Source: Sporosarcina sp. 6E9
Lineage (GTDB): Bacteria > Bacillota > Bacilli > Bacillales_A > Planococcaceae
Assembly (NCBI RefSeq): GCF_017921835.1
Contig: NZ_JAGEMN010000001.1
Location: 155,874-179,873 of the forward strand
Length of the DNA: 24,000 nt
Reading direction: 5' to 3'
The notes below the pieces were generated by a model. It searched no databases and was not told the origin of the DNA. It saw only the letters and a program-made list of their open reading frames with translations. The position numbers were made by a program, and so were the translations under genes. Position 1 is the first letter of the stretch. Each line of letters opens with the position of its first letter. Below, piece after piece: positions 6,013 through 24,000 of this stretch.

Positions 6013-6058
6013 AAAAAAGGTTTCTACAACAGAAATATCTGTTGTAGAAACCTTTTTT
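6013..6058 (+). terminator. rho-independent terminator
   Basis: Perfect 20-bp stem, aaaaaaggtttctacaacag (6013-6032) / ctgttgtagaaacctttttt (6039-6058), with loop aaatat. The A and T runs would allow it to act in both directions. Confidence 0.85.
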
Positions 6059-6126
6059 ATGAAGAAATAATATTTAATCAGTAAATTAAAGTAAATATAA
6101 AGGAGTTTTTATGCGAACGTAAATTC

Positions 6127-6192
6127 GCGTACCTGTGCATGAAACTATCGTGAAAGTTTAAACAATCATGATTGTTTGTCACACAGGTACGC
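6127..6192. repeat. nested inverted-repeat element (11-bp outer arms enclosing an 18-bp perfect palindrome)
   Basis: Outer arms are gcgtacctgtg (6127-6137) / cacaggtacgc (6182-6192). Inside is the palindrome aaacaatcatgattgttt (6160-6177). The element is preceded by aaggag-N6-ATG CGA ACG TAA (6111-6122). Confidence 0.4.
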
Positions 6193-6318
6193 TAAATCTA
6201 ATCTCAAGAAGACTAATTTAATTAAAATGATAAAGGAAAATAGACGAGTTTGCTGACTTTGCTGTAGGTAGTGAACATTGGGATTCAGATGAATAAACAC
6301 TATCTCAATAAATGAGCG

Positions 6319-7026: not shown

Positions 7027-7251
7027 ATGTCCGATTGGTTAACGAGTCTACAAACAGATACACCTCAACAAGGATTCGAACTCGCGATTCAACTTGCACG
7101 AAAAGGTGTCGCCTACACGCAACCTTCCGCAGAAATTAGAAATCAGCTAAGAGACGCGTACGCAAATAATGCCGATAGCCTAACGCAGTCATCACAAGTG
7201 ATCGCAACACATTATCAAACCGTTGCTGCTGCGAATGATTATTGGAAATAG
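7027..7251 (+). CDS. small hypothetical protein (74 aa)
   Basis: RBS agaggaggg, 6-nt spacer, ATG. Divergent from 6390-6875 and followed by a hairpin plus T-run. No recognisable motif. Confidence 0.55.
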   Translation: MSDWLTSLQTDTPQQGFELAIQLARKGVAYTQPSAEIRNQLRDAYANNADSLTQSSQVIATHYQTVAAANDYWK

Positions 7252-7586: not shown

Positions 7587-8316
7587 ATCCTGCGATATGA
7601 GCGAGAATTGAAAGGAATTCAAAGAAAAGTTGAACGTTTTACAGAAGACCACTTCAATGAAATTATGATCAATTATCAATTGATGTTTTAGCACTGTTGG
7701 AAAAGCATTTATCGGAAATGGGAGCTTACTGACGCGGTCCGAGCTTTGAAAAAAGCGTTGGTAACATTAAGTCACCAGATTGGAACCGAAATTGAACTCG
7801 CGAAAAGGAAAAGAGGTTTTTTAGGAGGACTATTCCAATTAAAAGCTGAGAAAAAGCAAGTGGAACTTGCGTTTAAAACATTAAATCAGGAAACATATCA
7901 TTCAACTTTACATAAAGCGAAAAAGAAGCTCATACATATACATCAATTTTCAGTGGGGCCTGAACAACTCAAGAAGCATTTTATCGAAAAAAACGCTGCC
8001 TATTATACTGAAATCGAAAAAAGTAATTGGTTTCGATGCTACTGCGATAGCTGAAGATTTTTCGAATGAAATTATCGAGGAAATCCAAGCGATACCTTTA
8101 GATACGACTGGGTTGAATTTAGATTTACGCCATTTTCAAAAATTCGAAGCGAAATATGCCTCGCATTATAAACGGACTTTACTTGGGGATGAAATGGGAC
8201 TTGGGAAAACGATTCAAGCATTGGCGCTGATCAATCATTTATTCCAAAATGATGAGAGGTATTCTATCGTTGTTTGTCCTTTAAGCGTGTTGGCGAACTG
8301 GAAACAGTTTTTCTGA
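7587..8316 (+). pseudogene. SNF2 family helicase, N-terminal part, with an in-frame stop and a frameshift
   Basis: [40 protein letters not shown]...[14 protein letters not shown] carries SNF2 motifs I and Ia. The upstream coiled-coil-like region is in another frame (7746-8054). The shift probably lies at an A-run around 8021-8026. An in-frame TAG sits at 7688-7690. Confidence 0.7.
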
Positions 8317-8520
8317 ATTCTGTCGGATGCAGTAGATGCAACTCCTTTGACAATAACTCCGTAATATCAGGTTGCAATACCGCGATTAACTGCTTCATTT
8401 CTTCCAAACGATTTTCAAGCGGTGTCCCGCTCATGAACAATGCATAATCCGCGTATGTAGTTGAATGAAGATCGCCATTCAATTTTACTATATCATTCAC
8501 ACTTAATCTGTTTTCTACTC
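8304..8520 (-). pseudogene. SNF2 helicase internal fragment (motif III region), inverted relative to the N-terminal part
   Basis: The minus strand reads ...VENRLSVNDIVKLNGDLHSTTYADYALFMSGTPLENRLEEMKQLIAVLQPDI...FRKTV. (L/M)(T/S)GTPxxN...E(L/M) is SNF2 motif III. This reading frame meets the + strand fragment tail-to-tail at about 8303-8306. Confidence 0.65.
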
Positions 8521-8807
8521 TTTAAACCTTGCTTCCCGTAGTCTTCTCATATGTTTTTCCTGTGACTTGGAACGTTCGCTTCCCTATACTGTCCTATCAT
8601 TGATGCGGTTACGTTCAAATGACGGTTAAAGAGACATCAGTGTGGTCGAACTCGTTGAGTTCGAGAAAGAAGAAGCTTGACCAATATAAATACTAGAGTG
8701 TGGCCGGAATGACCCCATACTATACATCAACAATTTATAAAATTTATACAAAATTATTCAATGGATAATTGTGCTAAACTCTATACACGACTATAAAACT
8801 ATCTACT

Positions 8808-8853
8808 TCTCAAACTAATGAGTTTATATAGCCTTGAAAAAGTTAGTTTGAGA
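8808..8853 (+). promoter_or_regulatory. 11-bp perfect inverted repeat just upstream of the ATPase-TOPRIM gene (possible operator or 5'-UTR hairpin)
   Basis: Arms are tctcaaactaa (8808-8818) / ttagtttgaga (8843-8853), separated by a 24-nt spacer. The repeat ends 8 nt before the RBS gaggag (8861-8866). Confidence 0.3.
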
Positions 8854-8878
8854 TAGAGTTGAGGAGATGATTTTTATT

Positions 8879-10366
8879 ATGATAAATTCATTAAAGATAA
8901 TTAATCGTGATCATATTCGAAATGTAGAATTGCTTAATCTTAGCAAAATAAATATCTTTTGTGGTAAAAATAACGCAGGTAAAACCACAATTTTAAATAC
9001 TTTATCGGGTGGATCTGAGAAATTTATGTTGGGGGAAGAATATTCTTTTGATGAAGTATGGTCTTTTTTTGTTAAAGTTAATACTAAAGCAAGAGAGGAG
9101 TTACAAGACGAAGATTATTGGAGTGATAATTTATTAGAAGAATATTACTCTTCTCTTTATTTAATACTAGAGGAATATAATAAACCTTTTTATTTTATTG
9201 ATGATTTGCTTATACTAACGCAACAAGTATTTATTGAAAATAAAGAAGAAGGACTATATGAAACTATATATAAAGTTATACAAGAAATTATTGGACAATA
9301 TGACATTTTCCCTTATTTAGAACCAGATAATATAATTTCTATTCCTGCAAATAGGTTTATAGAACCGAGAGTAAATTATAGTACTCAACAAAATGAGATT
9401 AAACCAACTGGTGAGGGAATTGTATCGAAAGTCTTTTTTATGAAAAATCAATTAGCAGGTACGCCAGAATTAATAGCATATCTTAGAATGAAAGACCAAT
9501 TTAAATTTATTTGTGATGGGTTTGATTTTGATATTATTCAAAATGGTGATGGAACTCTAAACCTAATGTTTACTAATCCATCTGGAGATTGGCTTAATGC
9601 CGAAAAATATGGTTTAGGATTACGTGATTTGTTAATAATTTTGTACTTTGCAAATAGCATTGACAATAGTAATGTCATTCTTATTGATGAAGTAGAAACG
9701 CATTTACATCCAGATTTACAAAGGAAGTTATTACATACCTTAAGGGAAAGTAGTAAACAGTTTTTTATTACTACACATTCCAATATATTTTTAGATAGTA
9801 CTTTCGTAAATAAAATATTTCATGTTACTTTTGATAATCAGATAAATATTGTTGATGCAACAAGTAGAAGTGGGTTGCTTAATGATTTAGGATTCTCTGT
9901 TTCAGATAATTTAACTTCTGATTTAATTATCCTCTGCGAGGGTCCAACAGATAAGCCGGTAATTGAAGAGTTTTTATATAAGTTTGATTTAATGCAAAAC
10001 TATAATATTAAAATATGGCCATTAGGAGGAGACATCATGGATCAACATGATCTTACGGTATTTAGTGAATCCTATAAAATTATTGGCTTAATTGATTTGG
10101 ATCCAGGAAGTGGGGTTATTAGGCAGCGTTTTGTTGACAATTGTACTGATAATAATATACCAGTACATAGATTAAAGAGATATGCTATTGAGAACTACTT
10201 TACGATTGAAGCATTAAGAAAGGTTTTTAAAGGACAAATAAGTCAAGATATTAGTACAATAGACACTACTATAAAATTGGAAGATCAAATAGGGATAAAT
10301 CCTAAGAAGAACAATAGAAAAATCGCAAATAACATGAACGTTGCAGATATCGAGGGTACTGATTAA
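8879..10366 (+). CDS. OLD-family-like nuclease: an ABC-type (AAA_15/AAA_21-like) ATPase fused to a TOPRIM (OLD/DUF4435-like) domain
   Basis: Walker A is GKNNAGKTT (8963-8989), the signature-like region is YGLGLRDLL, the Walker B is VILIDEVETHLHP (9674-9712), and ITTHS follows. The C-terminal TOPRIM motifs are LCEGPTDKPVIE (within 9920-9952), IGLIDLDPG and RYAIENYF. The ORF opens at 8867, but that ATG directly abuts the RBS, so the ATG at 8879 (12 nt after gaggag) is the likelier start. Confidence 0.8.
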   Translation: MINSLKIINRDHIRNVELLNLSKINIFCGKNNAGKTTILNTLSGGSEKFMLGEEYSFDEVWSFFVKVNTKAREELQDEDYWSDNLLEEYYSSLYLILEEYNKPFYFIDDLLILTQQVFIENKEEGLYETIYKVIQEIIGQYDIFPYLEPDNIISIPANRFIEPRVNYSTQQNEIKPTGEGIVSKVFFMKNQLAGTPELIAYLRMKDQFKFICDGFDFDIIQNGDGTLNLMFTNPSGDWLNAEKYGLGLRDLLIILYFANSIDNSNVILIDEVETHLHPDLQRKLLHTLRESSKQFFITTHSNIFLDSTFVNKIFHVTFDNQINIVDATSRSGLLNDLGFSVSDNLTSDLIILCEGPTDKPVIEEFLYKFDLMQNYNIKIWPLGGDIMDQHDLTVFSESYKIIGLIDLDPGSGVIRQRFVDNCTDNNIPVHRLKRYAIENYFTIEALRKVFKGQISQDISTIDTTIKLEDQIGINPKKNNRKIANNMNVADIEGTD

Positions 10367-10367
10367 G

Positions 10368-10815
10368 TTTCTCTTCGCCGCGGGCAACGGCTTTATTGAT
10401 ACGTATCTCGCCAGTTGCAAAGTTCATACCCCTCCACATAAGTGCCAGACCCTCACCCTCACTCTTTCGCATATCAGAATACGCAAGTAAATGAAAGAGA
10501 AAACATGGAGTCGTAAATTCTTTTCTTGTTTATGACAATCTAGGAACTCGATTAGCTGTTCCTTTGTATAGAAGTTTTCATAAATTAACTCATCAAATGT
10601 GATACTTTTTTATCGATTGGAATTTCAACCAGATCAATTGGATTTATATTGATATCAATATAACTTCAGCTCATAGCAAACGTAATAACCTTCGCAACAT
10701 ATGATTTAACCGTCATGAACCCCTTTAGTTTCATATAGTTATTTAAATTAGTTATATCATTTTCTCCTCTTATCAAATTTCGTATTACATTTACCCACTT
10801 ACACTTATTTCAAAA
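10368..10815 (-). pseudogene. tyrosine recombinase (phage-integrase family) remnant, 3'-truncated, with a nonsense codon and frameshifts
   Basis: The minus-strand frames give ...ITNLNNYMKLKGFMTVKSYVAKVITFAMS*SYIDININPIDLVEIP, then KSITFDELIYENFYTKEQLIEFLDCHKQEKN, then FLFHLLAYSDMRKSEGEGLALMWRGMNFATGEIRINKAVARGEEK. These match the integrase core-binding pattern and the first catalytic-domain pattern (..TG.R.sE...L.W.di......i.i.k). The later catalytic residues are absent because the frame runs into the 3' end of the 8879-10366 gene. Confidence 0.5.
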
Positions 10816-11496
10816 TAAGTTTAAAATGAATAATTTAAAATAAAAGTGAGTCACAACAATCAGTTGCTTCTGATAAGGAGTTCTGGGTTGTTACACTCAT
10901 TTCAGGAAATTCAATACTTTACACTTATAATAAATATACTTAGCCAGAATTTAACGCATTCAAATCTACATCTATGTTATAGCAATAAAACACTTATTTT
11001 AAAATGGGTGTTTTTCGCTTAGCCTCCTCGCTCCTCACCTCCAAAACCAAAAGAATAGCTATGCTCATAAATAAACCAAGTAAACACGGGCGCATTATAT
11101 AAAGATACAGACGGGTTAATATTTGGTTCAATAAAAAGGATAAAATACTACAATTCAATCCTTCGGCGTATAAGTTTTTACTTAAATTTAAGAAATGATT
11201 TTCAGGTTCATTTTATCCCCTGGAATTTTGTACATAGTGACAACCTCTGGAATTTTGTTTTGACGACGCCTTCGTTAAATAGCAGGAAAGGCAGCAAACT
11301 CCCATCAAATTAGAATATCAATAAATTATTCCAACGAAACCAGATGTTAACAAACGTGGCGGATCAAACCATCCGTGAAGAGTTTACGAAGTATAAGAAA
11401 ATTACGGTTGAGAAGTATGGCTACGCTGAAATAAATGGATTCCAAAACGGCTGACCCCATAACTTAAATTTAGTTAGTTGCCATTAATCCGACACC

Positions 11497-11531
11497 AAAA
11501 AGCAGCACCTAAAATATGGTGCTGCTTTTTT
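11497..11531. terminator. bidirectional rho-independent terminator
   Basis: Stem aaaaagcagcacc (11497-11509) / ggtgctgcttttt (11518-11530) with an 8-nt loop. U-runs are available on both strands. It lies 12 nt beyond the stop of the minus-strand hydrolase gene. Confidence 0.8.
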
Positions 11532-11542
11532 CGAACGCTATT

Positions 11543-12826
11543 TTATTCATTAATAATAGATTCATAAACTGTATTCGCAATCGTTCTCGATAAAAGTCCT
11601 GTGCTTGAGTAAGAACCACTTGCTAAAGGACCGTTATTTTGTTTATTGGCTAATACAATGATTTGTAGATTGTTGACAGGGTCAAAGATGACTTGTGTTC
11701 CGGTAAAACCTGTATGGCCAAATGCTTGTCCAGAATGAAGATTGCCCATATACCAGGTTTGGTTTAGTTCCCAACCGTATCCTTGGCCGAATTGTTGAGG
11801 GGAAGTAAATTGATCGACAATCGCTTCATTATATAAGGAAACTTTTCCGTAACTGCCTTTGTTCAGCATCGTTTGACCGAGTACGGCTAAATCGCGCGCA
11901 GTTGAAAACAGACCGGCATGTCCTGCAACTCCTTGATTGGCATAAAAGCTATTTCCATCGTTTACTTCACCGATTAACGTATACTCTCTCCAATGCTTAA
12001 AGTCATCCGCATCTTCCTCGACGTAATAACCGAAGTTCGGATCATCTACCATTTTATATTCATATGGATTGCCCCATGAAGTGGCCGCAATTTTTTTGTT
12101 CGTTTTTTCTAGCGGGTTAAACATTGTATCTTTCATATTTAAAGGCTCGTAAATATTGTTTTCTAGATAGACATCCAATCGTTGTCCAGTAACTGCCTCG
12201 ATTACAAAACCAAGAGCCATATAGCTAAAATCACTATATTTGCGATTGGTGCCTGTCTCATATTCGAGCGGTAGTTCATTGATATAATCGAGTACTTCTG
12301 CTGGATTGGTTGCATGTAAGAAGGTCGGTGCCCAAGGTGTTAACCCAGATGTATGTGTGAGTAAATGTGCAATTTTCACTGCATCTTTTCCATTTTCCGC
12401 GAATTCGGGAATATATGTCGCAACCGGTTCGTGAATATCAATTACCCCTTCAGAAGCCAGTTTCATAATCCCTTGTGTTGTCCCCATGACTTTCGTCACC
12501 GATGCCAAATCAAAAATGGTCTTTTTCGTCATTTTTACAGGTTGCTGTAGTTTGTTGCCCATATCATAGAGTTGGGCATGTCCATATGCGGTTTCTTTGA
12601 CGATTTTATTGTCCTTTGCAACAAGGACGACAGCTCCTGGTGTAACCCCATTACGAATCGCATCTTCTACAATTTGATCGATTTCATTCAGTTTGTTTTG
12701 ATCCATCCCGACTGCATTTGGTGAACCTTGACTAAGTTTTTCTCCTAATTGTTTCGCACTGACCGGTGATGAGATAACAGCGGTCATTAAGAATAGGATA
12801 ATCGTACCGAAAACTAGTTTTCTCAC
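11543..12826 (-). CDS. secreted serine hydrolase of the beta-lactamase / DD-peptidase (class C-like) fold
   Basis: Signal peptide MRKLVFGTIILFLMTAVISSPVSA|K. S-x-x-K nucleophile motif in FDLASVTKVMGT, a YSD (Y-x-N-like) motif in RKYSDFSY, and HTGFTGT (the K/H-T-G box). GTG start 5 nt after ggaggag. Confidence 0.85.
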   Translation of the reverse strand: MRKLVFGTIILFLMTAVISSPVSAKQLGEKLSQGSPNAVGMDQNKLNEIDQIVEDAIRNGVTPGAVVLVAKDNKIVKETAYGHAQLYDMGNKLQQPVKMTKKTIFDLASVTKVMGTTQGIMKLASEGVIDIHEPVATYIPEFAENGKDAVKIAHLLTHTSGLTPWAPTFLHATNPAEVLDYINELPLEYETGTNRKYSDFSYMALGFVIEAVTGQRLDVYLENNIYEPLNMKDTMFNPLEKTNKKIAATSWGNPYEYKMVDDPNFGYYVEEDADDFKHWREYTLIGEVNDGNSFYANQGVAGHAGLFSTARDLAVLGQTMLNKGSYGKVSLYNEAIVDQFTSPQQFGQGYGWELNQTWYMGNLHSGQAFGHTGFTGTQVIFDPVNNLQIIVLANKQNNGPLASGSYSSTGLLSRTIANTVYESIINE

Positions 12827-12848
12827 ACATTCTCCTCCTAAGTTATAG

Positions 12849-12877
12849 TTGAAAATTCTAAATGTAAGCGTTATAAT
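12849..12877 (+). promoter_or_regulatory. sigma-A-type promoter of the nine-gene operon (TTGAAA-17 nt-TATAAT) with an overlapping cre-like half-site
   Basis: The -35 ttgaaa is at 12849-12854 and the -10 tataat at 12872-12877, with an exact 17-nt spacer. tgtaagcgttataa (12863-12876) has a perfect left cre half (TGTAAGCG) but a poor right half. Confidence 0.55.
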
Positions 12878-12977
12878 TACAATATACCATATTCTGTAGA
12901 TTCATTACAAGTATAATCAGAATATTGTAAACATCCAAGCCATAGGATTAGGTTACATAGTAAGGGGGGATGTGAGC

Positions 12978-14009
12978 TTGTCGCGATTAGAAAAAAGACT
13001 TGAGTTAGCAAAGAAGGAACTTCGTCGATCGGTCATAGATATAAATGCTGAAATCAACGATAAAACAGAACTTCCTGAGGGCGTATTATTTTACGGCATT
13101 AAAGATACGGATCAGATTCCAGCCCTTTTCCTAAACAGGCTTAGTGCTCACAAACGATTTTGTTGGTTAACGACTGATAAAGCAGCCAATAAAGGAAGAG
13201 CGATTGATACGGATTTATTAAATCCTTTAACGTATCGCGTCATGACTGGTTCGACAAGTGGGGGTCCAGTCAATATTTTAAAAGGGATTACTGATTTTGC
13301 AATTGGCACGGATGGGGGTGGCTCAGTATTAGCTCCGGCGATTAGCTGTCAACTCCCATCGATTATGGCTGCGGGTTTAGGTTTACATGTCAAAGAAGAT
13401 AAAACCTCAACTGATGGCATTCAATTTATGGGCAGTATTGGGGTGATTGGAAAAAGTGTACCTTTGCTGAAACAAATCACTGAAATTATGTTGGCAAGAG
13501 AACTGGATACAGATGAGGACGAACCAATAACCATTGCCATTCCGCAAAAAGGAACTGTGATGCGTCCAGATGGCCAAGATATGCATGCGGTAATCATGAA
13601 TTATCTCAACCGAATTAAGTTAAAACACGTAACAATTAAAGAAGTGGATATGACGGGAATTGATGAACGAAAACGCGCCATTGTAACCTTGCAAACTTGT
13701 TTTGAAGAAGTAGACTTTGTCCTAACTTGTGAAGGACCTGTTGATGTCTACGGATATGGAGAGACAATTCCGCAACAGTTTGGTCAAGCGGGAAGAGAGT
13801 TGACCAACGATCACGGAAAATATTTAATACGCGCTGCAAATATGTGTAAAGCAACAGCGGTAACTATTCCAACGACTGATATAGCCAGTGCCTTGGTTAT
13901 TGTCGCAAAAAATGGTTTATCACATGGTGCAAAGGCCATTCACTTAGCTGAAAAGTTTGAACAAGTCATTGAACTCCCAGAAGTTTGGCGACGCTACTTT
14001 TTAGCGTAA
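12978..14009 (+). CDS. compact amidase-signature (AS) family protein
   Basis: TGSTSGGPVNILKGITDFAIGTDGGGSVLAPAISC parallels the AS consensus GGSSGG....(x).LGTDtGGSIRiPA. An upstream GIKD could supply the catalytic Lys. The ORF opens at GTG 12972, but TTG 12978 is better spaced from aagggggga. At about 343 aa it is much shorter than typical AS enzymes. Confidence 0.6.
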   Translation: MSRLEKRLELAKKELRRSVIDINAEINDKTELPEGVLFYGIKDTDQIPALFLNRLSAHKRFCWLTTDKAANKGRAIDTDLLNPLTYRVMTGSTSGGPVNILKGITDFAIGTDGGGSVLAPAISCQLPSIMAAGLGLHVKEDKTSTDGIQFMGSIGVIGKSVPLLKQITEIMLARELDTDEDEPITIAIPQKGTVMRPDGQDMHAVIMNYLNRIKLKHVTIKEVDMTGIDERKRAIVTLQTCFEEVDFVLTCEGPVDVYGYGETIPQQFGQAGRELTNDHGKYLIRAANMCKATAVTIPTTDIASALVIVAKNGLSHGAKAIHLAEKFEQVIELPEVWRRYFLA

Positions 14010-14046
14010 GAGATAGAAAACAGGGGTGTGAGAAAGGAGCTGCTAC

Positions 14047-14979
14047 ATGAGCAGAATATGGGAAGTTTTATTCTCGAAAAATGGTCTAGCAGCTAAGCAA
14101 ATTGCTGAAATGCTAATACCCATTCATGAAGGTGAACGGATCCCACGTGTAGAGGATTTTGAGAACCAACTTTCAATTGGAAGGGGCACAGTTCAAGGGG
14201 CTTTGAAAGTGCTAGAAAGTTTACATGCCGTTCAATTAGAGTCACGTGGTCACTTGGGGACGTTTGTCGTTAAAAGAAATCTACATTTGTTAAAAGAGAT
14301 TGCTGGTGTTGGAGATCTTATGGGCGCCATGCCTTTACCATATTCGACTTTATATGAAGGTTTGGCTACGGGATTAATCGAGGTCTCAGACCAATTAATG
14401 AACGGTATCAATCTCGTATACATGCGTGGATCAAAGCAACGAGTAGAGGGGTTAAAATCCCGTAGATATGATTTCATAGTGCTATCTCAATTAGCCGCCG
14501 AAGAAGAAATGAAGCATGATGATCAGTTGACGATCGCCTTGGATTTTGGCCCAAACACGTATGTATCCTCACATAAGGTGTTTCTAGCCGATCCAAAGAA
14601 AAATGCAATCGAGCGTGGCATGCGCGTAGGCATTGACTACTCCTCTTTTGACCAGTTAAAAATTACGTTACTTGAATGTGAAGATATCGACGTCGAACTT
14701 GTCTCGATTAACTATATGCAACTATTTGAAAATCTACAAAATGGCACATTGGATGCGGCCGTTTGGAATTCCGATGAAAGCCGATCTGTAAAAGCATTTA
14801 AACAAGTTAACTTTCAATCTCAACAAGCAAGAGAGATTGCCAAGAAAGCGACTACATCGGTTATCTTAATTGAAAAGCAAAGGGAAGAGGTTTTCAATTA
14901 CTTTTCGCAACTAGATAAAGAGGAAGTAAAGCAGATTCAACAGTTGGTTGTTGACCATGAAAAAATACCGCATTATTAA
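14047..14979 (+). CDS. yhfZ: YhfZ-like transcriptional regulator (GntR-type winged helix-turn-helix plus a ligand-binding-like C-terminal domain)
   Basis: Winged-HTH segment IPRVEDFENQLSIGRGTVQGALKVLESLHAVQLESRGHLGTFVV. Its 310 aa compares with ~300 aa for E. coli YhfZ. It sits at the head of the yhf-type gene set. RBS aaaggag. Confidence 0.65.
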   Translation: MSRIWEVLFSKNGLAAKQIAEMLIPIHEGERIPRVEDFENQLSIGRGTVQGALKVLESLHAVQLESRGHLGTFVVKRNLHLLKEIAGVGDLMGAMPLPYSTLYEGLATGLIEVSDQLMNGINLVYMRGSKQRVEGLKSRRYDFIVLSQLAAEEEMKHDDQLTIALDFGPNTYVSSHKVFLADPKKNAIERGMRVGIDYSSFDQLKITLLECEDIDVELVSINYMQLFENLQNGTLDAAVWNSDESRSVKAFKQVNFQSQQAREIAKKATTSVILIEKQREEVFNYFSQLDKEEVKQIQQLVVDHEKIPHY

Positions 14980-15002
14980 GACATAATTTTTGGGAGGCAG
15001 CT

Positions 15003-15422
15003 ATGACTAAAGATGAGTTACGAACAAGACTGACAATATTACGCGATCAACATGTCATTAACGAACGGGCTTACGAAGTAACAAACATGGCTTTTGATAA
15101 GCTAATCGAATGCCTACAAGTAGACGATGTGACACAAGCAGAAATGTTGTTTACGCATTTACCAACAGCACTCACAAGAATTTCACAAGGTGAAGATGTT
15201 GAAGGGCCGTCAGCGGAAATGCTGGTAGAAATTAAACAATCCGAATACTATCCAATCGCTAGACAACAAGTTGACTATATTGAGAGCGTTTGGAAGGAAG
15301 CGATACCAAAAGCAGAAATTGATTTTTTATTATTACATTATACAAATGTCATTACGATAAACCAGGGAGGCAATCAGAATGAAAATTGTTGTTGGAGGAC
15401 AAATGGAAAAGAAAGAAATTGA
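15003..15422 (+). CDS. yhfY: YhfY-like small PRD-domain protein
   Basis: Assigned mainly from size (139 aa versus ~120) and from its position between the yhfZ-like and yhfU-like genes. RBS gggagg. Its 3' end overlaps the next gene by 44 nt. Confidence 0.5.
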   Translation: MTKDELRTRLTILRDQHVINERAYEVTNMAFDKLIECLQVDDVTQAEMLFTHLPTALTRISQGEDVEGPSAEMLVEIKQSEYYPIARQQVDYIESVWKEAIPKAEIDFLLLHYTNVITINQGGNQNENCCWRTNGKERN

Positions 15423-15738
15423 ACGAATGATTAAGGAGTTTGATCCATCGATTGAAACGACGATCAAATCTGATGTCGAAGCTGCAATGGCACTTAAAAC
15501 GGGACAAGTTGATTATTATTTAGGGGCTTGTCATACAGGTGGTGGCGGTGCATTAGCGATGGCCATTGCCATCATTGGCCGAAATCAATGTGAAACCGTA
15601 TCGATGCCAGGAAAACAGCCAGTAGAAGAAAAAGTGATCGAGGCAGTTAATGAGGGTAAAAAAGCATTTGGATTCACAGGGGATCATGCAAATCAAGCTG
15701 TTCCAATGATTTTACGAGCCATTAAGAACAAAAACTAA
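15379..15738 (+). CDS. yhfU: YhfU-like protein (DUF2620)
   Basis: A 119-aa protein with MKIVVGG...DVEAAMALKTGQVDYYLGACHTGGGGALAMAIAIIG, the Gly-rich GAC.TG.G.AL core I associate with YhfU/DUF2620. RBS gggagg, 7 nt before the ATG. Confidence 0.65.
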   Translation: MKIVVGGQMEKKEIERMIKEFDPSIETTIKSDVEAAMALKTGQVDYYLGACHTGGGGALAMAIAIIGRNQCETVSMPGKQPVEEKVIEAVNEGKKAFGFTGDHANQAVPMILRAIKNKN

Positions 15739-15766
15739 CTAAATTCAACCAGGGGGAGTGGGAAAA

Positions 15767-17059
15767 ATGGAAACATTGTTTATCGTTTTAATAGGTGCAG
15801 TAGCAGCCGTATTGGCTAACCAAAACATTGCTGTCTTTAATGATGGGTTACGTCCAATCGTTTCTGAACATGTTCAAGGAAATTTAAAGCGGAGAGATTT
15901 AGGTCTAACTGCATTTGCTATGAGTTTTGGATTGGTAATTGGATTTGGGATTCCTTTTACCATCACGGCGAGTATTATTTTAGTGCATAGTATTTTACTA
16001 GGTACTGATATCATTGGTTTAGTTGCCCCAAAAAATAAGTGGGGGAGTACAGTTGCGGCCATTGTCGGCGGTCTGTACGGGTGGGGTTTGTTAGCTGGGT
16101 TGGAAGGCTTTGTGAAATTATTTGAACACTTACCTGTTAACTTCTTAGATGCCATGGGCGAAGTTGGAACCCCAGTTGTGGTTACATTTATGGCTTTTCC
16201 AGCAATTGCTGTTGCGATGCAGTTTAGTATTCGTAAAGGTGTTTTAACCTTTGTAGTCGCGGCACTTGTTCGTCAGTTAGCTGTGTTTGTGAATACAGGT
16301 GGTTTTTTATCAATTGGTGGCAATGCGATTACGTTAAACCAAGAAGGTATGGCGTTAATTGTTGGAATGATTTTCCTATTTACTTATGCCATTAAAGAAA
16401 AAACGACTGATGGTTCAACAATTGATTTAGCAGCTGTTTTTGGTGATAAAGTGAAAGCGATCCGTAAAAATGTTGTTTTCTTCATGATCATTGGTGCGTT
16501 AATCGCGGGTGCGACGAACCTCTTATTAATGGCAGGAGATCCGATATCTTTAAGCTTACTTGCAGATGGGCAAAAGAATGATGCTGGGATTGCAGCAGCG
16601 GCTAGGGCCATTGGCTTTATCCCGTTAATCGCAAGTACAGCCATTGTAACGGGTGTTTATAGTCCAGTTGGATTTACACTCATTTTTGTTGTGGGTCTTT
16701 TCTCTCCAAATGTATGGATTGCGGTTATTGTCGGTGCCATCGTTATCTTTGGAGAAGTAATCCTGTTAGGATCAATTGCACGTTTCCTAGACAAATATCC
16801 TGGCGTTCGTAATTCTGGTGATAACATTCGTAATGCGATGACAAAAATTCTTGAAGTTGCTTTATTAATCGGTGGTGCGAATGCAGCTAACCTCATTGCA
16901 CCTGGATTTGGTTTCTTCTTTATCGCAGGATTCTATCTATTGAACGAAGTAGCAGGACGTCCAATCGTGCGTATGGCAATTGGACCAATTGGCGCGATTG
17001 CGGTTGGAATTATCGCGAATATCTTAGTGTTGCTAGGCATTATGGCAATTCCATCATAA
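15767..17059 (+). CDS. yhfT: YhfT-like polytopic membrane protein (putative transporter)
   Basis: About 430 aa and highly hydrophobic, with many predicted TM helices. The N-terminal ...ANQNIAVFNDGLRPIV resembles YhfT. The ORF opens at GTG 15758, but ATG 15767 is 9 nt after aggggga. Confidence 0.65.
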   Translation: METLFIVLIGAVAAVLANQNIAVFNDGLRPIVSEHVQGNLKRRDLGLTAFAMSFGLVIGFGIPFTITASIILVHSILLGTDIIGLVAPKNKWGSTVAAIVGGLYGWGLLAGLEGFVKLFEHLPVNFLDAMGEVGTPVVVTFMAFPAIAVAMQFSIRKGVLTFVVAALVRQLAVFVNTGGFLSIGGNAITLNQEGMALIVGMIFLFTYAIKEKTTDGSTIDLAAVFGDKVKAIRKNVVFFMIIGALIAGATNLLLMAGDPISLSLLADGQKNDAGIAAAARAIGFIPLIASTAIVTGVYSPVGFTLIFVVGLFSPNVWIAVIVGAIVIFGEVILLGSIARFLDKYPGVRNSGDNIRNAMTKILEVALLIGGANAANLIAPGFGFFFIAGFYLLNEVAGRPIVRMAIGPIGAIAVGIIANILVLLGIMAIPS

Positions 17060-17100
17060 AACCAGTCTATGTCTTAATCGCATCTTAGGAGTGAATGATA

Positions 17101-18015
17101 ATGATTCAAACTGTACAAGGGAAAATTAAAAAAGAGGATTTAGGAATATGTGCGGCTCATGAGCATCTTTCTATTGATTTATCAAGAATCAAAAATGATC
17201 CAGATACAATTTTAGATGATGAAGCGGGCATGGCGTCTGAATTAGCGCATTTTCACCGTGCTGGTGGGCGCTCTATGATTGAGTTAACCAATGAAGGTAT
17301 GGGTCGTGACACTGAACGGCTCAAACGTCTTAGTGAACAATCAAACATTCATATCATCACATGTACCGGTTTTTATAAAGATCCATTTATCCCAGAATTT
17401 GCACAAGGTTGGGACCGTGATCAATTTGCCGCGCATTTCATCCGTGAGATTGAACATGGGATTGGGGACACGGGAATTTTTCCGGGAATCATTGGTGAAG
17501 TAGGTACAAGTCACAATGAAATTAAACCGGTAGAAAATGAATTAATCATCGGTGCTGGCATGGCCGCTTTAAAAACAGGTGTAACTGTGACCACCCATAC
17601 GACCCTGGGAACGATGGGAATTGAGCAAATCGATATGTTGTTTAAACTAGGTGTCCCAAAAGAACAAATTATTATTGGGCACCAAGATTTAAACGCCAAT
17701 AAAGATGAAGTGCTTGAGGTGCTGCAATCCGGCGCTTATATCGGATTTGACACGATTGGAAAGAATAATTATAGACCTGATGAAGAACGCATTGCATTTT
17801 TACTAGACTTTATCGAACGAGGATATCATCAGCAAATTCTCTTATCGGCAGATTTAACGAGAAAATCTCATTGGCGAAAGCATGATGGACCTGGTTATGA
17901 CCTTGTTTTAAGGGATTTTATACCTGCATTAAAACAAAATGGCGTAACAGATGAAATGATTGATGATTTTCTCATCCATAATCCAGCAAATGCATTAGCA
18001 ATAAAGGAGCGGTAA
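17101..18015 (+). CDS. php: phosphotriesterase homology protein (Php/YhfV; amidohydrolase superfamily, binuclear metal site)
   Basis: The ligand pattern reads CAAHEHL (HxH), IIGEVGTS (a Glu rather than the carbamylated Lys, as in Php), VTTHT, IIGHQD and LLSADL (Asp). About 305 aa. ATG 17101 is better spaced from aggag than ATG 17095. Confidence 0.8.
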   Translation: MIQTVQGKIKKEDLGICAAHEHLSIDLSRIKNDPDTILDDEAGMASELAHFHRAGGRSMIELTNEGMGRDTERLKRLSEQSNIHIITCTGFYKDPFIPEFAQGWDRDQFAAHFIREIEHGIGDTGIFPGIIGEVGTSHNEIKPVENELIIGAGMAALKTGVTVTTHTTLGTMGIEQIDMLFKLGVPKEQIIIGHQDLNANKDEVLEVLQSGAYIGFDTIGKNNYRPDEERIAFLLDFIERGYHQQILLSADLTRKSHWRKHDGPGYDLVLRDFIPALKQNGVTDEMIDDFLIHNPANALAIKER

Positions 18016-18016
18016 T

Positions 18017-19153
18017 ATGGCTTATGATTTCTCTAAGTTAAAATATGCAGAATCAGTTATTCCGTCCAGGAGTATTCAAGAGGCACAGGATTTACAATTT
18101 AAGTTAGTCGATTGTATGCGTAAGCATTTTACCGGCGATCAATTTTTGTCGCTTGGTGATTTGGGCGTCGTTCCTGGATTACAACGACCAGCGCAAACAA
18201 AACGAGTTGAGGAAACTTTAGCAGACTTTTTTGGTACAGAAAGCGCGGCTTTAGTGAGAGGTGCAGGTACTGGTGCCATCCGTACAATCTTAAGTACATT
18301 GGTTGAACCAGGTGATAAGATGTTTATTCATCAGGCACCTGTTTATTCAACAACGGTAGAAACCTTTCGTTCACTTGGTATTGAAACGAAGCCTGTTGAT
18401 TACAATGATTTGGCTGCGGTTGAAGAAACCTTGAAAAAGGATACGACATGTAAAGTGTTTTACATTCAACATGCGAGACAACAACCGACAGATACGTATG
18501 ATCTTAAAGTGGTTATTCATTTAGTCAAAATGGTGCGTCCGGATGTCACCATCGTCAGTGATGACAATTACTGCGCCTTGAAAGCATATGGAATTGCTGC
18601 CGAATACGGTGCGGATTACTCTACATTCTCTGGGTTCAAGGTGCTTGGACCCGAGGGAATTGGTGTCATTGCAGGAAAAAAAGAAGCAATCTCATTATTA
18701 CAACATCGAAATTACTCTGGTGGTGGACAAGTTCAAGGTTACGAAGCGATGGAATTATTGCGGATGATGACATTCGCACCCGTTATGCTTGCGATACAAA
18801 ACGAACAAGTCCAAGAGGTTTGCCAACGATTAAATGAAGGCGAGATTGCTGGTGTCGAATCAGCCTATATGGTCAATGCGCAGTCAAAAGTAGTCATTCT
18901 TGAGTTGGATGAGCCAATTGCGCAACAGGTGATTCAAGCAAGCAATGAATTAGGTGCAGCGACACATCCCGTTGGCGCGGAATCGAAATATGAAATCCTA
19001 CCAATGATTTATCGGGTGTCAGGTACATTTCTTGCGGCCCAACCAAGGTTGAAAGAATATGGAATTAGGATTAATCCGATGAAATCAGGTGCTTCGACCG
19101 TATTAAACATCCTAGATAAAGCCATTAAACAAGTAAAAGAAGCGCGCGCATAA
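18017..19153 (+). CDS. yhfS: YhfS-like PLP-dependent enzyme (fold type I)
   Basis: Its 378 aa compares with ~360 for YhfS. A candidate PLP-lysine lies in a YSTFSGFKVLGPEGIG (S-x-x-K) context, and VSDDNY is an Asp-containing cofactor motif. The gene is translationally coupled: the php stop is at 18013-18015 and this ATG is at 18017. Confidence 0.65.
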   Translation: MAYDFSKLKYAESVIPSRSIQEAQDLQFKLVDCMRKHFTGDQFLSLGDLGVVPGLQRPAQTKRVEETLADFFGTESAALVRGAGTGAIRTILSTLVEPGDKMFIHQAPVYSTTVETFRSLGIETKPVDYNDLAAVEETLKKDTTCKVFYIQHARQQPTDTYDLKVVIHLVKMVRPDVTIVSDDNYCALKAYGIAAEYGADYSTFSGFKVLGPEGIGVIAGKKEAISLLQHRNYSGGGQVQGYEAMELLRMMTFAPVMLAIQNEQVQEVCQRLNEGEIAGVESAYMVNAQSKVVILELDEPIAQQVIQASNELGAATHPVGAESKYEILPMIYRVSGTFLAAQPRLKEYGIRINPMKSGASTVLNILDKAIKQVKEARA

Positions 19154-19177
19154 TATAGAGTACGGGAGGCTACTTCC

Positions 19178-20338
19178 ATGTTTTTGGACGTTACAAAACG
19201 AAGAAATTCCGAATTAATTAAAACGGGCGTTACGCTACATCAGGCGGGGGAAATCCCGCCTAACACCTATATCATTGATGTAGATATTTTGCGAGAAAAT
19301 GTAAGGAAATTAGTTCAAACTGCAGATCAAGCTATGATGGAATTATATTTAATGTCAAAACAATTAGGCCGTTTTCCTGAGATAGCAAAAATCATTGTGG
19401 AAGAAGGCATTACAAAAGCTGTGGCTGTAGATTTTGATGAAGGAAAAATATTGGCTGATCACGGAATAGCAATTGGGAATATTGGCCATTTAGTTCAACC
19501 TGGAAAACATCAGTGGGCAGAGGTATTAAGCTGGAAACCTGAAGTGGTCACGATTTTTTCGTATGAACGAGCGAAACAACTTTCTAATGCAACTGAACGA
19601 TTAGGCGTTAGCCAAGACATCATCCTGAAAGTATATGATGAACAAGATATGCTATATCCCGGTCAAGAAGGCGGTATCTTATTACAAAATTTAGCTGAAG
19701 AAATCGATAGCATTCAGCAACTTCCAGGTGTGGATATTGTGGGGCTTACAACATTTCCTAATCTACAACTAAATGCTACCAAGACGGAAATGGTACCAAC
19801 CCATAACTTAACAACGTTACTTGAAGCTAAAAAAGTCTTGATTCAAAAAGGAATTGCAATTAAGCAAATCAACGGGCCAAGCGGAACAAGTTGTGAAACG
19901 ATTCCATTTTTAGCTGCGCAAGGTATTACGCATAGTGAACCGGGTCACGGGCTGACAGGGACAACCCCACTTCATGCCTTTAAAGATCTACCGGAAAAAC
20001 CAGCGATTATTTATGTAACGGAAGTGTCGCATCAGGTTCGTGATAGCTATCAAGTCATTGCGGGTGGCTATTATGGTCGCTCCAATATGGAGGGCTGTTT
20101 AGTCGGAAGTGATCCAAATTCTATCTTCAATCAATATGCAAAGGCCGAACAGTTGAATCCCGACTCCATCGACTATTATGGACTCATTAATCATCAGGAT
20201 GACTTTTCGATCGAGATTGGAGACACCGCGATATTTGCCTTTCGCACACAAATCTTTGTCACCCGGGCTCATGTTGCTTTAGTCGAGGGAATCCAAAAAG
20301 GTCAACCTAAATTGATACATTTTGAAAGGAAGTGGTGA
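19178..20338 (+). CDS. yhfX: YhfX-like protein (alanine-racemase N-terminal-domain / fold type III PLP family)
   Basis: Its 386 aa compares with ~387 for YhfX. The N-terminus MFLDVTKRRNSELIKTGVTLHQAGEIPPNTYIIDVDIL fits my recollection of YhfX. Operon position also fits. RBS gggagg. Confidence 0.6.
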   Translation: MFLDVTKRRNSELIKTGVTLHQAGEIPPNTYIIDVDILRENVRKLVQTADQAMMELYLMSKQLGRFPEIAKIIVEEGITKAVAVDFDEGKILADHGIAIGNIGHLVQPGKHQWAEVLSWKPEVVTIFSYERAKQLSNATERLGVSQDIILKVYDEQDMLYPGQEGGILLQNLAEEIDSIQQLPGVDIVGLTTFPNLQLNATKTEMVPTHNLTTLLEAKKVLIQKGIAIKQINGPSGTSCETIPFLAAQGITHSEPGHGLTGTTPLHAFKDLPEKPAIIYVTEVSHQVRDSYQVIAGGYYGRSNMEGCLVGSDPNSIFNQYAKAEQLNPDSIDYYGLINHQDDFSIEIGDTAIFAFRTQIFVTRAHVALVEGIQKGQPKLIHFERKW

Positions 20339-20342
20339 CATC

Positions 20343-21575: not shown

Positions 21576-21604
21576 CAGTGGGTTACAATAATATACTTCT
21601 ATTC

Positions 21605-21641
21605 AAAAGACGATTTCTATCATTTAAAGAAATCGTCTTTT
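21605..21641. terminator. rho-independent terminator closing the operon
   Basis: Perfect 13-bp stem, aaaagacgatttc (21605-21617) / gaaatcgtctttt (21629-21641), with an 11-nt loop. Confidence 0.75.
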
Positions 21642-21733
21642 GGTGCGCTTTGAATTCAATGTTTACAACAGCTTAACCCGTCACTTAATGGATATATTTT
21701 TTATCATTGGTACTTCATCTAAATTTTTTATGT

Positions 21734-23320
21734 TTATTTGCTTTTAATAATTCTTTTAATAATATCATGATTCTCTTCTTTGGAATTTAAGGTAAGCTCA
21801 AAGCACTTTTTTGATTCGCTATAATATGCAGTGACACTCATATCATCTAGTAATATATTACTTCTAATATCAGTAAGAGCATCTACTAAAGAAATATGTT
21901 CCTGTTTTTTATGGCTATAGTCATTTAACCCGGTTTTATATTCTGCTTCTAAAGTGATATATCTGCGATCAAAATAATCATCAGCTTTGATGGGGTTAAA
22001 TTTTCTGCGATACAAACTACCGTTTAAATATCGCAAATCAGGATAGAAATCCTCTTCTATATATTCGGCATCCGAAATACCATTACTAATATAATAAACC
22101 TGACAATTAATCTGATTGTTAATTTTCCATCTGACTGTTAATCGAATTATTTCAGAGTTGTAATAATAGGATTGATAGCTTTTACCTGAATTCGATAGAT
22201 CGAAAAAAAGTTGTAATTCATTTTCCGTTATAGGCTCATCTATTTTCAAAATCTCATCTTTTAGTGGGAAAGAGTCATATTTTCTGAATGGATAAATTAA
22301 TCCGTGCTTATTAAATGACTTTTTTGTAAAATATAATGATTCGTATTCTGCTTCTAAACTATTCATCTTCTCTTTAATGCGTTCGATTTCTTTGATTTCA
22401 GTTATACAAAAGTTTAAATAATCAAACTCATAGTTTTTATTTTTAAAATAAGTAGCTAGATACTTTTTTGCTGGAATGTCATTTTCAAAAATAACCTTTT
22501 TCATTCTACCAAGAAGCAGTTTATTTTCACCGACACTAGTCTTAGAAAGTGATGATATAATTGCTTCTTCCAGGTTACTTATTTGGTTAGAGTATTCGGT
22601 GTATAAGTCATTTATTCTTTTATAGTCTTGATCATATCTCTCTGAGGGAAATTCTAATTCAATTTTTAATGATTCATATTCACTTAAGATGTTAGGACTA
22701 ATCTCTTCTGATTCAGAAATTAAAAATGACTTTAAAAAGTTGAATCGGGAGTATCCGAAGTCGGTAAGATTTTTCAAATTGTTGAACTCCCAAATTTTTA
22801 ATTTTACCGAATCCCCATTTGTTTTGTTATAACCATCCTTAGTATCAGTGAGAGATAGTAATTGATTAAAGCCGAAAAAACTACTCAAAAACTCTTGAAT
22901 AAGCTGTCTTTCAAGACTAATGGACTCATCTTGATCTGTATTTTTAATTATTACCATTTTTAAGTCAGATAATTGACAGTTATTATCTACCATGTATTTG
23001 AATATTTTACATGATTTATAGGAACCTTCATAAAAAGGAATCGTGTTCCTGAAAAAATATCTGTAGTACTCATTATAGGAGAGGCGATTAAGTGCCAATA
23101 TTTCTTTTTTATGTTCTTTCCATCTTTTTTGAAAGTTATTAGTTCTACCAATATAGATAGGCAGCACGGAAGATGAAGTGAAATTATCTACATAAAGAAG
23201 ATATACTCCTGATTTTTTATTTTTTGTAAAGTTATTAACGTGATTATTTCTTCTTAGATTAATCAATTCCAGTACTTTTCTTTTAATAACGTTAAACGTT
23301 TCAGGTACTTCATCATTCAT
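21734..23320 (-). CDS. GIY-YIG nuclease-domain protein with a large uncharacterised C-terminal region
   Basis: GVYLLY-x10-PIYIGRTNNFQKRWKEH ... SLERQLIQEFLSSFFGFNQ supplies GIY, YIG, Arg, His, Glu and Asn in canonical GIY-YIG order (nt 22862-23218). The remaining ~375 aa are rich in coiled-coil-like segments and have no motif I can place. The ORF opens at 23503, but an RBS (aagggg, 23330-23335) 9 nt before ATG 23320 (MNDEVPE...) marks the likelier start. Confidence 0.75.
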   Translation of the reverse strand: MNDEVPETFNVIKRKVLELINLRRNNHVNNFTKNKKSGVYLLYVDNFTSSSVLPIYIGRTNNFQKRWKEHKKEILALNRLSYNEYYRYFFRNTIPFYEGSYKSCKIFKYMVDNNCQLSDLKMVIIKNTDQDESISLERQLIQEFLSSFFGFNQLLSLTDTKDGYNKTNGDSVKLKIWEFNNLKNLTDFGYSRFNFLKSFLISESEEISPNILSEYESLKIELEFPSERYDQDYKRINDLYTEYSNQISNLEEAIISSLSKTSVGENKLLLGRMKKVIFENDIPAKKYLATYFKNKNYEFDYLNFCITEIKEIERIKEKMNSLEAEYESLYFTKKSFNKHGLIYPFRKYDSFPLKDEILKIDEPITENELQLFFDLSNSGKSYQSYYYNSEIIRLTVRWKINNQINCQVYYISNGISDAEYIEEDFYPDLRYLNGSLYRRKFNPIKADDYFDRRYITLEAEYKTGLNDYSHKKQEHISLVDALTDIRSNILLDDMSVTAYYSESKKCFELTLNSKEENHDIIKRIIKSK

Positions 23321-23940
23321 ATTTATAATCCCCTTTAGAAGATTTATTTTTAATATCATTAAATTCCATTTTTGCGTATCCTTACAACACCCAGCGTGAT
23401 TATAATTGAAGCGCCATTGAACAAGTTTTAAAACCACGGTTAGTTCTTGAAGTGCATATTCGTTAGAAGTATCAGTCTCATACTCGTCTATTCGCTCGTG
23501 CATTTTTTATTGGCCTGTGATTAAGTATTAATTGATTTTGGGATAGGCATAGTCTTCTTTCACTTTTGGAACCTTCTTACTGATTGTAGCATGATTTATG
23601 TCGATTCGTTAGACTATTAAGTATATATTCAGTAGGAAAGACTATGTGCTTAAAGAATTAGAAAGTAAATCGTTTCCAAATAAAATGAATGGAGTTATGG
23701 TTCATTGGCATGATTGTATAATAAAGAGACAGAATAAAATATATTCAAACATTGTTTTTTACTTAATGCTGGTTTTGGTATTAGTGCGCTCTTATACAGT
23801 GAGAACAGTAACCGTTCAAAATGTAGATTTAACACCATATTGTGAAGTAGGGCGAGCAGGTAACGAATTTATTATTTAATTAGCACTTCGTTCATCTGAC
23901 TTATAAATGAGAAATACTTTTTTTCTTAGGGGGATATACA

Positions 23941-24000
23941 TTGCGAGAGAAGGCCGGTTGGGAATTAAAAGAAGGTTCAACAACTTACGGGAATGTTTCA
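23941..24000 (+). CDS. start of an unidentified gene (partial; runs off the window)
   Basis: RBS taggggga, 6-nt spacer, TTG at 23941, then an open frame (M)REKAGWELKEGSTTYGNVS to the window edge. Only 20 codons are visible. Confidence 0.3.
   Translation, partial: MREKAGWELKEGSTTYGNVS

Follow-up and report, generated by a model that had tools for sequence, protein, structure and literature searches.

What kind of protein is encoded in a low-G+C islet of the Sporosarcina sp. 6E9 genome, and is the gene still whole? The stretch of DNA that we analysed, which we will call the window, comprises 24,000 nucleotides (nt; positions 155,874 to 179,873 of the forward strand of contig NZ_JAGEMN010000001.1), and the gene in question lies on its plus strand at 8879..10366. 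A preliminary description, made from the sequence alone, had interpreted this gene as an intact, stand-alone fusion of an ABC ATPase with a TOPRIM domain, similar to the OLD nucleases or to PARIS, and had proposed that it is a single-gene defence module. We propose (with a probability of roughly 75%) that it encodes a solitary Class 1-type OLD nuclease from a widespread, horizontally scattered branch whose members are 495-550 amino acids (aa) long, and that the copy in the window is clipped at its 3' end. The clipping is new in this analysis: the gene is open, but it is not intact.

The N-terminal part of the protein (8879..9841, plus strand) is an ABC-type ATPase domain of the AAA_15/AAA_21 kind, as the preliminary description had recognized. 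Over aa 28-310, it matches the Pfam families AAA_15 (2.1e-18) and AAA_21 (3.3e-16), and it contains Walker A (GKNNAGKT, with K39), a signature-like YGLGLRD, Walker B (ILIDEVE, followed by THLHP), and an H-loop (TTHS). Eleven positions in this domain are invariant in the family alignment (G33, N35, N36, G38, K39, E275, E277, H279, H281, H304, and S305). When we searched the PDB with the family profile, the best match was the OLD protein of Thermus scotoductus (Ts OLD, 7.4e-15), followed by AriA and PtuA; with the single sequence, AriA ranks at the top. In the AlphaFold model, a four-helix insertion (aa 61-144, 9047..9298, plus strand) lies between the strands of the ATPase domain, with helices at aa 61-79, 87-102, 111-125, and 128-144. 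This insertion is the predicted counterpart of the dimerisation domain of OLD (the architecture of Ts OLD is described in PMC7049728). The N-terminal part of the protein, to which it belongs, is the less constrained one, and alignment columns 100-200 are poorly conserved.

The C-terminal part (9899..10246, plus strand) is an OLD-type TOPRIM nuclease domain, according to a Pfam scan of the family, a fold search, and profile alignments. When 42 family members were scanned singly, 39 of them matched the Pfam family OLD-like_TOPRIM (best 1.9e-5) and 23 matched the general Toprim family. E358, D362, D410, D412, and E442 are invariant in the family, as are LGGD (G387 G388 D389), S415, and R419. By hhalign, the family aligns with P2 Old (E = 2.9e-6) from Walker B into the TOPRIM, which places E358 on E398 and D362 on E402; if the C-terminal domain alone is aligned to the C-terminus of P2 Old, then only the EGxxE motif is recovered (probability 7.7%). 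In the alignment to E. coli YbjD/OldB (E = 6.8e-5, 192 columns), all three motifs are collinear: EGPTD pairs with EGETE, DLD with DGD, and IENY with DMEH. Mutagenesis of Ts OLD and P2 Old has identified the metal-A ligands as a glutamate and a DxD motif, and the metal-B ligands as an acidic residue at +4 and an [S/D]-x-E motif (PMC7049728). From the sequence, we predict that metal A is bound by E358, D410, and D412 and that metal B is bound by D362 and E442. Because the 'ENY' motif aligns with the metal-B motif of YbjD, we interpret it as the metal-B glutamate motif of OLD, and not as a signature of DUF4435.

The fold of the protein leads to the same assignment. The full-length AlphaFold model, which was built from a 42-sequence alignment, has a mean predicted local distance difference test score (pLDDT) of 88.9 and a predicted template modelling score (pTM) of 0.84, and it consists of an ABC ATPase and, after it, an alpha/beta domain. 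The top matches to this model in the PDB, as found by Foldseek, are the retron Eco8 OLD nuclease, Gabija GajA, and Ts OLD (6P74). These are themselves full-length ATPase-TOPRIM proteins; we also modelled the C-terminal 170 residues separately (pLDDT of 82.7). The best matches to the isolated domain were the C-terminal regions of the Xanthomonas (Xcc) and Burkholderia (Bp) OLD proteins (6NJV and 6NK8), with template modelling (TM) scores of 0.54-0.56, probability 1.0, and E of about 3e-3; GajA came next. So, the structure comparison that had been suggested at the outset returns OLD- and GajA-type matches both at full length and for the isolated domain, and the proposal that a single polypeptide combines an ATPase with an OLD-family TOPRIM agrees with Pfam, the fold search, and hhalign. 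The suggested search with domain models gave a more mixed result: AAA_15, AAA_21, and (for 39 of 42 members) OLD-like_TOPRIM were found, but the window copy falls below the threshold for OLD-like_TOPRIM and there was no listed match to DUF4435.

The protein belongs to a large family. We found 473 homologues in a collection clustered at 90% identity, and the 120 of these that were listed are about 450-540 aa long. A profile search of 1.84 billion cluster representatives gave 574 matches at E ≤ 1e-30; those that were listed cover the profile from end to end and are 495-550 aa long, except for evident fragments. Hence, although the preliminary description had viewed the protein as clearly shorter than P2 Old or GajA and perhaps a compact subtype, its length is the norm for the family and is near that of the Ts OLD chain (528 aa). 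Several homologues (from Peribacillus, Metabacillus, and Priestia) are named 'ATP-dependent nuclease' by NCBI. The gene is an ordinary member of the OLD family of ATP-driven nucleases, which are known anti-virus proteins of bacteria, and its branch is already visible in the databases. We recovered 57 genomic loci, from both bacteria and archaea, at 35-50% identity (Bacillota, Acidobacteriota, Verrucomicrobiota, Planctomycetota, Sorangium of the Myxococcota, Bacteroidota, Omnitrophota, Methanothrix, and a Thermoplasmatota archaeon). This patchy spread across phyla, at such levels of identity, indicates horizontal transfer.

Is there a partner gene? The window by itself is uninformative on this point because the DNA downstream of the gene has been deleted, so we compared the neighbourhoods of the 30 loci that have a full-length match. 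In an all-versus-all blastp comparison of the open reading frames (ORFs) within 5 kb, no neighbouring family was present in more than three of these loci and none was consistently adjacent. Ten upstream neighbours belong to unrelated Pfam families (DUF4379, an M12 protease, a Ser/Thr kinase, ThiC, UvrA, an M49 peptidase, RES, AAA+, and TIR) or, in one case, had no Pfam match. Class 1 OLD proteins are defined as single genes with no conserved partner (PMC10568477, PMC12392090, PMC13261556), and by this published definition the lack of a conserved partner in 30 loci makes the family a solitary, Class 1-type one. The same survey bears out the earlier remark that no UvrD-like or other second gene accompanies the nuclease. 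The length cut-offs for Class 1 are about 500-600 aa (PMC12392090); full-length members of the family have 495-550 aa, and the window copy has 495 aa owing to its truncation.

The closest relative that we found (P0001, at a locus that we term L058) is 69% identical, and it is flanked by a serine recombinase on one side and a Lamassu-like set of genes on the other, which is a clear defence-island or mobile context. This setting supports the mobile or defence association that had been proposed for the window gene. More specifically, at 1968-10150 of L058, the serine recombinase is upstream of the OLD-like gene, and a Lamassu-like trio is downstream (a 476-aa protein, a 200-aa MComp1 protein, and a 948-aa LmuB, 1.6e-91).

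Comparison to this relative (window 8879-10363 against 2716-4251 of L058) shows where the protein is constrained. The ratio of nonsynonymous to synonymous substitution rates (dN/dS) is 0.21 overall, 0.30 in the N-terminal ATPase part, and just 0.09 in the C-terminal part. Similarly, across phyla, the mean column identity is 66% in the C-terminal TOPRIM part versus 47% in the ATPase part. Such a contrast would be expected if a conserved effector were coupled to a sensor or regulator that evolves faster. Of the 81 positions with a conservation of at least 95% in the other members, the window copy retains all 81, which places it among the best in the alignment.

Several observations weigh against the identification of the gene as a Class 1-type OLD defence nuclease. 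The window copy itself scores 20.2 bits against OLD-like_TOPRIM, below the cut-off of 23.2 bits, although this threshold is a database criterion and lies outside the published definition of Class 1. By sequence, the profile of the C-terminal domain matched nothing meaningful in the PDB, and the fold match of the isolated domain is moderate (TM of about 0.55, E of about 3e-3). Within the active site, the residue two positions before E442, which should be a metal-B ligand ([S/T/D]), is Ala or Ser, and we did not locate the catalytic Lys/Arg, for which R419, R451, and K480 are candidates. As for the genomic context, several homologues adjoin housekeeping genes (ThiC, UvrA, or peptidases), just two of nine large flanking genes at the homologous loci had PADLOC matches (LmuB and a QatA-like gene), and no close relatives were present in any of 50,697 phage records or 72,556 plasmid records. 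In the suggested survey of neighbourhoods, no neighbour was conserved in the 30 loci, and the contexts were mixed, with some of them housekeeping. Finally, the anti-phage role is inferred from family membership alone.

We now turn to the state of the gene. The ORF on the plus strand (8867..10366, 499 aa in the ORF listing of the window) most likely begins at the ATG at 8879 rather than at 8867. A Shine-Dalgarno-like AGGAG (8862..8866, plus strand) lies immediately against ATG 8867, but 12 nt upstream of ATG 8879; 34 of 41 aligned homologues start at the position equal to M5 (ATG 8879); and the closest homologue, at L058, has the identical layout of AGGAG, 12 nt, and ATG, without an earlier ATG. 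For these reasons we place the probable start at 8879, which gives 495 aa. The ORF and all of the motifs that the preliminary description listed are present, at GKNNAGKTT 8963-8989, VILIDEVETHLHP 9674-9712, LCEGPTD 9932-9952, LIDLDPG 10088-10108, and RYAIENYF 10178-10201, and YGLGLRDLL and ITTHS are both found in the ORF as well. The low G+C content of the islet was also correctly noted, as the G+C content is 28.6% in the gene, 36.8% in the whole window, and 40.6% in the syntenic core at 11511-21500.

The 3' end is another matter. All 41 of the aligned homologues run for 13-29 residues (median 16) beyond the last residue of the window protein, whose C-terminal helical tail (aa 461-499, 10247..10363, plus strand) is cut short. 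The missing extension is a conserved final helix with the consensus LYxFLxKVxxxC and a near-invariant Phe. By blastn, nucleotide homology with L058 extends from 8862 to 10364, at 75% identity, and the L058 gene continues for another 47 nt. The composition shifts at the same place (the flank at 10365-11510 has 33.9% G+C, versus 28.6% for the gene), and we identify 10364..10365 as a rearrangement breakpoint between the 3' end of the OLD gene and the remnant of a convergent integrase gene. The sequence at 10364-10366 is T/AA, so that the TAA stop codon arises at the junction. We found no terminator after the OLD gene and no strong promoter match close upstream of it. As both of the convergent genes lose their 3' ends at one breakpoint, the simplest reading is that a single deletion removed both ends. 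Thus, of the claim of an intact ORF of about 495 aa, the open frame and the length from ATG 8879 hold, but the last 13-29 residues are gone. Similarly, the gene had been described as the only intact ORF of its island and a still-selected cassette, but it was clipped by the rearrangement that truncated the integrase, and current selection on it is not demonstrable. The retained part of the gene is undamaged, so the truncation is either recent relative to the divergence or tolerated. Judging from the sequence, the window copy may be weakened, inactive, or still working.

The truncation raises the possibility that the window copy is a dead relic, which was inactivated by the loss of the helix and the terminator and remains open only because the deletion is recent. 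We rate this as somewhat less probable than not. The residues that are present in 41 of 41 homologues and lost here at the breakpoint (at 10364) include a near-invariant Phe, there is neither a terminator after the gene nor a strong promoter match close upstream, and all of its neighbours in the islet are wrecks. On the other hand, 495 codons have stayed open in DNA of 28.6% G+C, the 81 conserved positions have all been kept, dN/dS is 0.21, and the loss is limited to a terminal helix outside of the catalytic motifs. Furthermore, the anti-phage phenotype of E. coli YbjD survives deletion of its entire TOPRIM (PMC13261556). A different question is whether the protein, clipped or not, has a role outside of defence, in DNA or chromatin maintenance, so that the context of the islet would be incidental. 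There is a precedent in the archaeal protein Cran1, which represents one class of OLD and is not a defence protein (PMC12796447). Such a role would also fit with the housekeeping genes (UvrA, ThiC, or peptidases) next to some homologues, with the absence of the family from the phage and plasmid collections that we searched, and with the strong conservation of the C-terminal domain across phyla (66% mean column identity). Yet the family is spread patchily over bacteria and archaea at 35-50% identity and has no conserved operon, the window gene is low in G+C and lies in a strain-variable region with an integrase alongside, and its closest relative is between a resolvase and a Lamassu system. A role in maintenance seems unlikely to us.

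Even less probable, in our view, is an interpretation that takes up the PARIS-like reading of the preliminary description, namely that the gene is a fused PARIS system (AriA and AriB in one chain, OLD Class 4), which would sense phage anti-restriction proteins and cut tRNA with a DUF4435-type TOPRIM. PADLOC does report AriA (5.6e-19 and 1e-18) and fused AriAB (9.5e-18, over aa 255-445), matches to the AriB model occur in 9 of 21 C-terminal domains (best 1.7e-5), and AriA is the top match in the PDB for the single sequence. But the matches to AriA reflect the generic ATPase core, and the match to AriAB covers only positions 318-521 of 694. DUF4435 is not among the 12 Pfam matches of the window protein, nor is it among the 25 most-matched of the 54 families in the scan of 42 members. 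The family profile has its best match in the PDB to Ts OLD (7.4e-15), AriB is outside of the top 50 folds for the domain, and the ENY motif, on which the DUF4435 reading had relied, aligns with the metal-B motif of YbjD.

If the protein is a solitary Class 1-type OLD nuclease, as we propose, then its mechanism may be similar to that of its relatives. By analogy with P2 Old, Ts OLD, the Vibrio cholerae protein Vc OLD, YbjD, and GajA, it would dimerise via the helical insertion, and the TOPRIM site (E358, D410, and D412; D362 and E442) would be gated by ATP that is bound or hydrolysed in the ABC heads. A phage-derived trigger would then lead the two-metal TOPRIM to nick or cut nucleic acid, either DNA or tRNA, and phage replication would stop. 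(For Ts OLD and Vc OLD, the substrate is DNA, which they cut or nick; for P2 Old and AriB, it is tRNA.) As to its history, the gene would have arrived as low-G+C cargo beside the integrase, in a strain-variable region, and a later deletion would have taken the 3' ends of the two convergent genes, leaving a stop codon made by the junction and no terminator.

It is possible, but we only suggest it tentatively, that the branch is a distinct and unnamed single-gene anti-phage system within the OLD family, perhaps corresponding to one of the uncharacterised clades discussed below. If so, then its TOPRIM would be a compact and very strongly constrained one (dN/dS of 0.09 and 66% column identity), the variable insertion could be the sensor, the branch may have another target (a DNA nick or tRNA) and another trigger than P2 Old and Vc OLD do, and nature would have supplied a C-terminal deletion mutant in the clipped Sporosarcina allele. 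Within a major defence family, no class is understood less well than the solitary OLD nucleases: phenotypes are available for P2 Old, Vc OLD, and YbjD only, and these disagree on the target (tRNA or a DNA nick) and on whether the TOPRIM is required. A uniform branch with 574 cluster representatives, which crosses phyla and whose nuclease domain is very conserved, would make a reasonable new test case. For the window itself, the message is mostly a cautionary one: the gene is a recognizable member of the OLD family and not PARIS-like, and it is truncated amid the remains of genes from mobile elements.

Those remains lie on both sides of the gene, as had been described. On the right is a frameshifted remnant of a tyrosine integrase (10366..10609, minus strand), which we identified from stop-to-stop translations and tblastn. 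It lacks most of the catalytic domain past the first arginine box. The joined fragments match 61 phage records at 40-47% identity, and all eight of the matches that were listed are in genes annotated as integrases; the short pieces had no Pfam match. On the left is a remnant of an SNF2-family helicase (7885..8521), frameshifted and in two pieces. The first piece (plus strand, 7885-8313) contains motifs I/Ia and matches positions 18-68 of the SNF2-rel_dom profile (1.2e-13). The second piece is inverted (minus strand, 8267-8521), contains the region of motif III, and matches positions 154-184 (2.1e-3). This internal inversion suggests that the islet was rearranged more than once. A remnant of an HNH endonuclease (11071..11310, plus strand; HNH_4, 2.4e-5) lies just inside the right-hand limit of the strain-specific region; synteny begins 200 bp farther on. 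A related contig (L060), with 88% nucleotide identity, is syntenic with 11511-21617 of the window and with nothing to the left of 11511, so the islet lies in a strain-variable region. We did not find a tRNA gene that would mark an attachment site, or convincing flanking direct repeats.

Beyond the islet, a serine hydrolase gene (11546-12826), which is 100% identical to a protein of Sporosarcina sp. 6E9, is followed by an operon similar to yhfS-yhfZ (12972-21575), which includes a YhfZ regulator, YhfT, a phosphotriesterase-like protein, a YhfS-like protein, and a YhfX-like protein, and which is 88% identical at the nucleotide level in the related contig. The end of the window (21500-24000) is a second block of low G+C (27-32%) and contains a 589-aa ORF (21734..23503, minus strand). 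Pfam returns a single match for it, to the GIY-YIG nuclease domain (6e-6), and PADLOC returns none; the ORF is perhaps a further gene of foreign or defence type. The related contig reaches only as far as window position 21617, short of this ORF. At the left edge of the wreck zone is a gene for a hexameric tyrosine-coordinated haem protein (HTHP, 7027-7251, 3.8e-35). Farther to the left, a perfect 21-bp hairpin lies directly 3' of a 213-aa ORF and is likely a terminator, with a 36-nt imperfect palindrome nearby (6013-6058 and 6124-6195).

How does the window protein compare with known OLD classes and defence systems? It is most like Class 1 (P2 Old, Ts OLD 6P74, Vc OLD, and YbjD/OldB). These are likewise encoded by single genes without a conserved neighbour, they carry a C-terminal TOPRIM behind an N-terminal ABC ATPase that contains a helical insertion, and they are similar in length (528 aa for Ts OLD and 552 aa for YbjD). 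The alignments pair up the catalytic Glu, the acidic position +4, the DxD, and the later Glu, and the full-length fold matches 6P74. In contrast, their identity to the window protein is just 12-14% or so in the fold alignments, the window branch is absent from the phage records that we searched, and its metal-B [S/T/D] position is Ala or Ser. As for P2 Old in particular, the TOPRIM of the window family has no profile alignment to it past the first motif.

GajA of Gabija (Class 2) has the same two-domain plan, ranks high among the fold matches at full length and for the isolated domain, and its PADLOC models score down to 1.3e-16. However, there is no UvrD-like GajB in the window or beside any of the 30 homologues, and the window protein is about 50-100 aa shorter than GajA. 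We reject Class 2 because the 30 loci have no conserved downstream gene; in the window, what lies downstream is the integrase remnant. We also reject Class 3 (retron effectors): there is no recurring neighbour, and the neighbours that we scanned do not include a reverse transcriptase, although noncoding RNAs were not searched for. Class 5 (Cran1) is defined by vertical inheritance in one order and by a conserved operon with a membrane protein. This class is rejected as well, as the members of the window family are scattered over phyla and archaea and have no conserved neighbour.

Among the models in PADLOC, those for AriA, PtuA, GajA, Old, AbiLi, NsnB, and PDC-M38A all score over the shared ATPase core. 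The best match, to NsnB (4.3e-24), is rejected because it covers aa 5-315, which is the ATPase alone. When the C-terminal domains were isolated (n = 21), the PDC-M55B model matched 17 of them weakly, and the matches to AriB that are described above were weak too. PARIS and the split pairs (AbiLi/AbiLii, PDC-M38, PDC-M55, and HEC-01) resemble the window protein in their ATPase core, which scores with AriA, AbiLi, and PDC-M38A. PARIS differs in that the window protein is one chain of about 500 aa, versus 694 positions for the fused AriAB model, and in that the fold of its C-terminal domain is nearer to the C-terminal regions of OLD than to AriB.

Besides Classes 1-5, a recent phylogeny reports 11 uncharacterised clades of OLD proteins (U1-U11; Yang et al., 2025, PMC12796447). 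These clades are well supported, and several of them mix bacteria and archaea, as the window branch does (PMC12796447). Probably, the window branch belongs to one of them.

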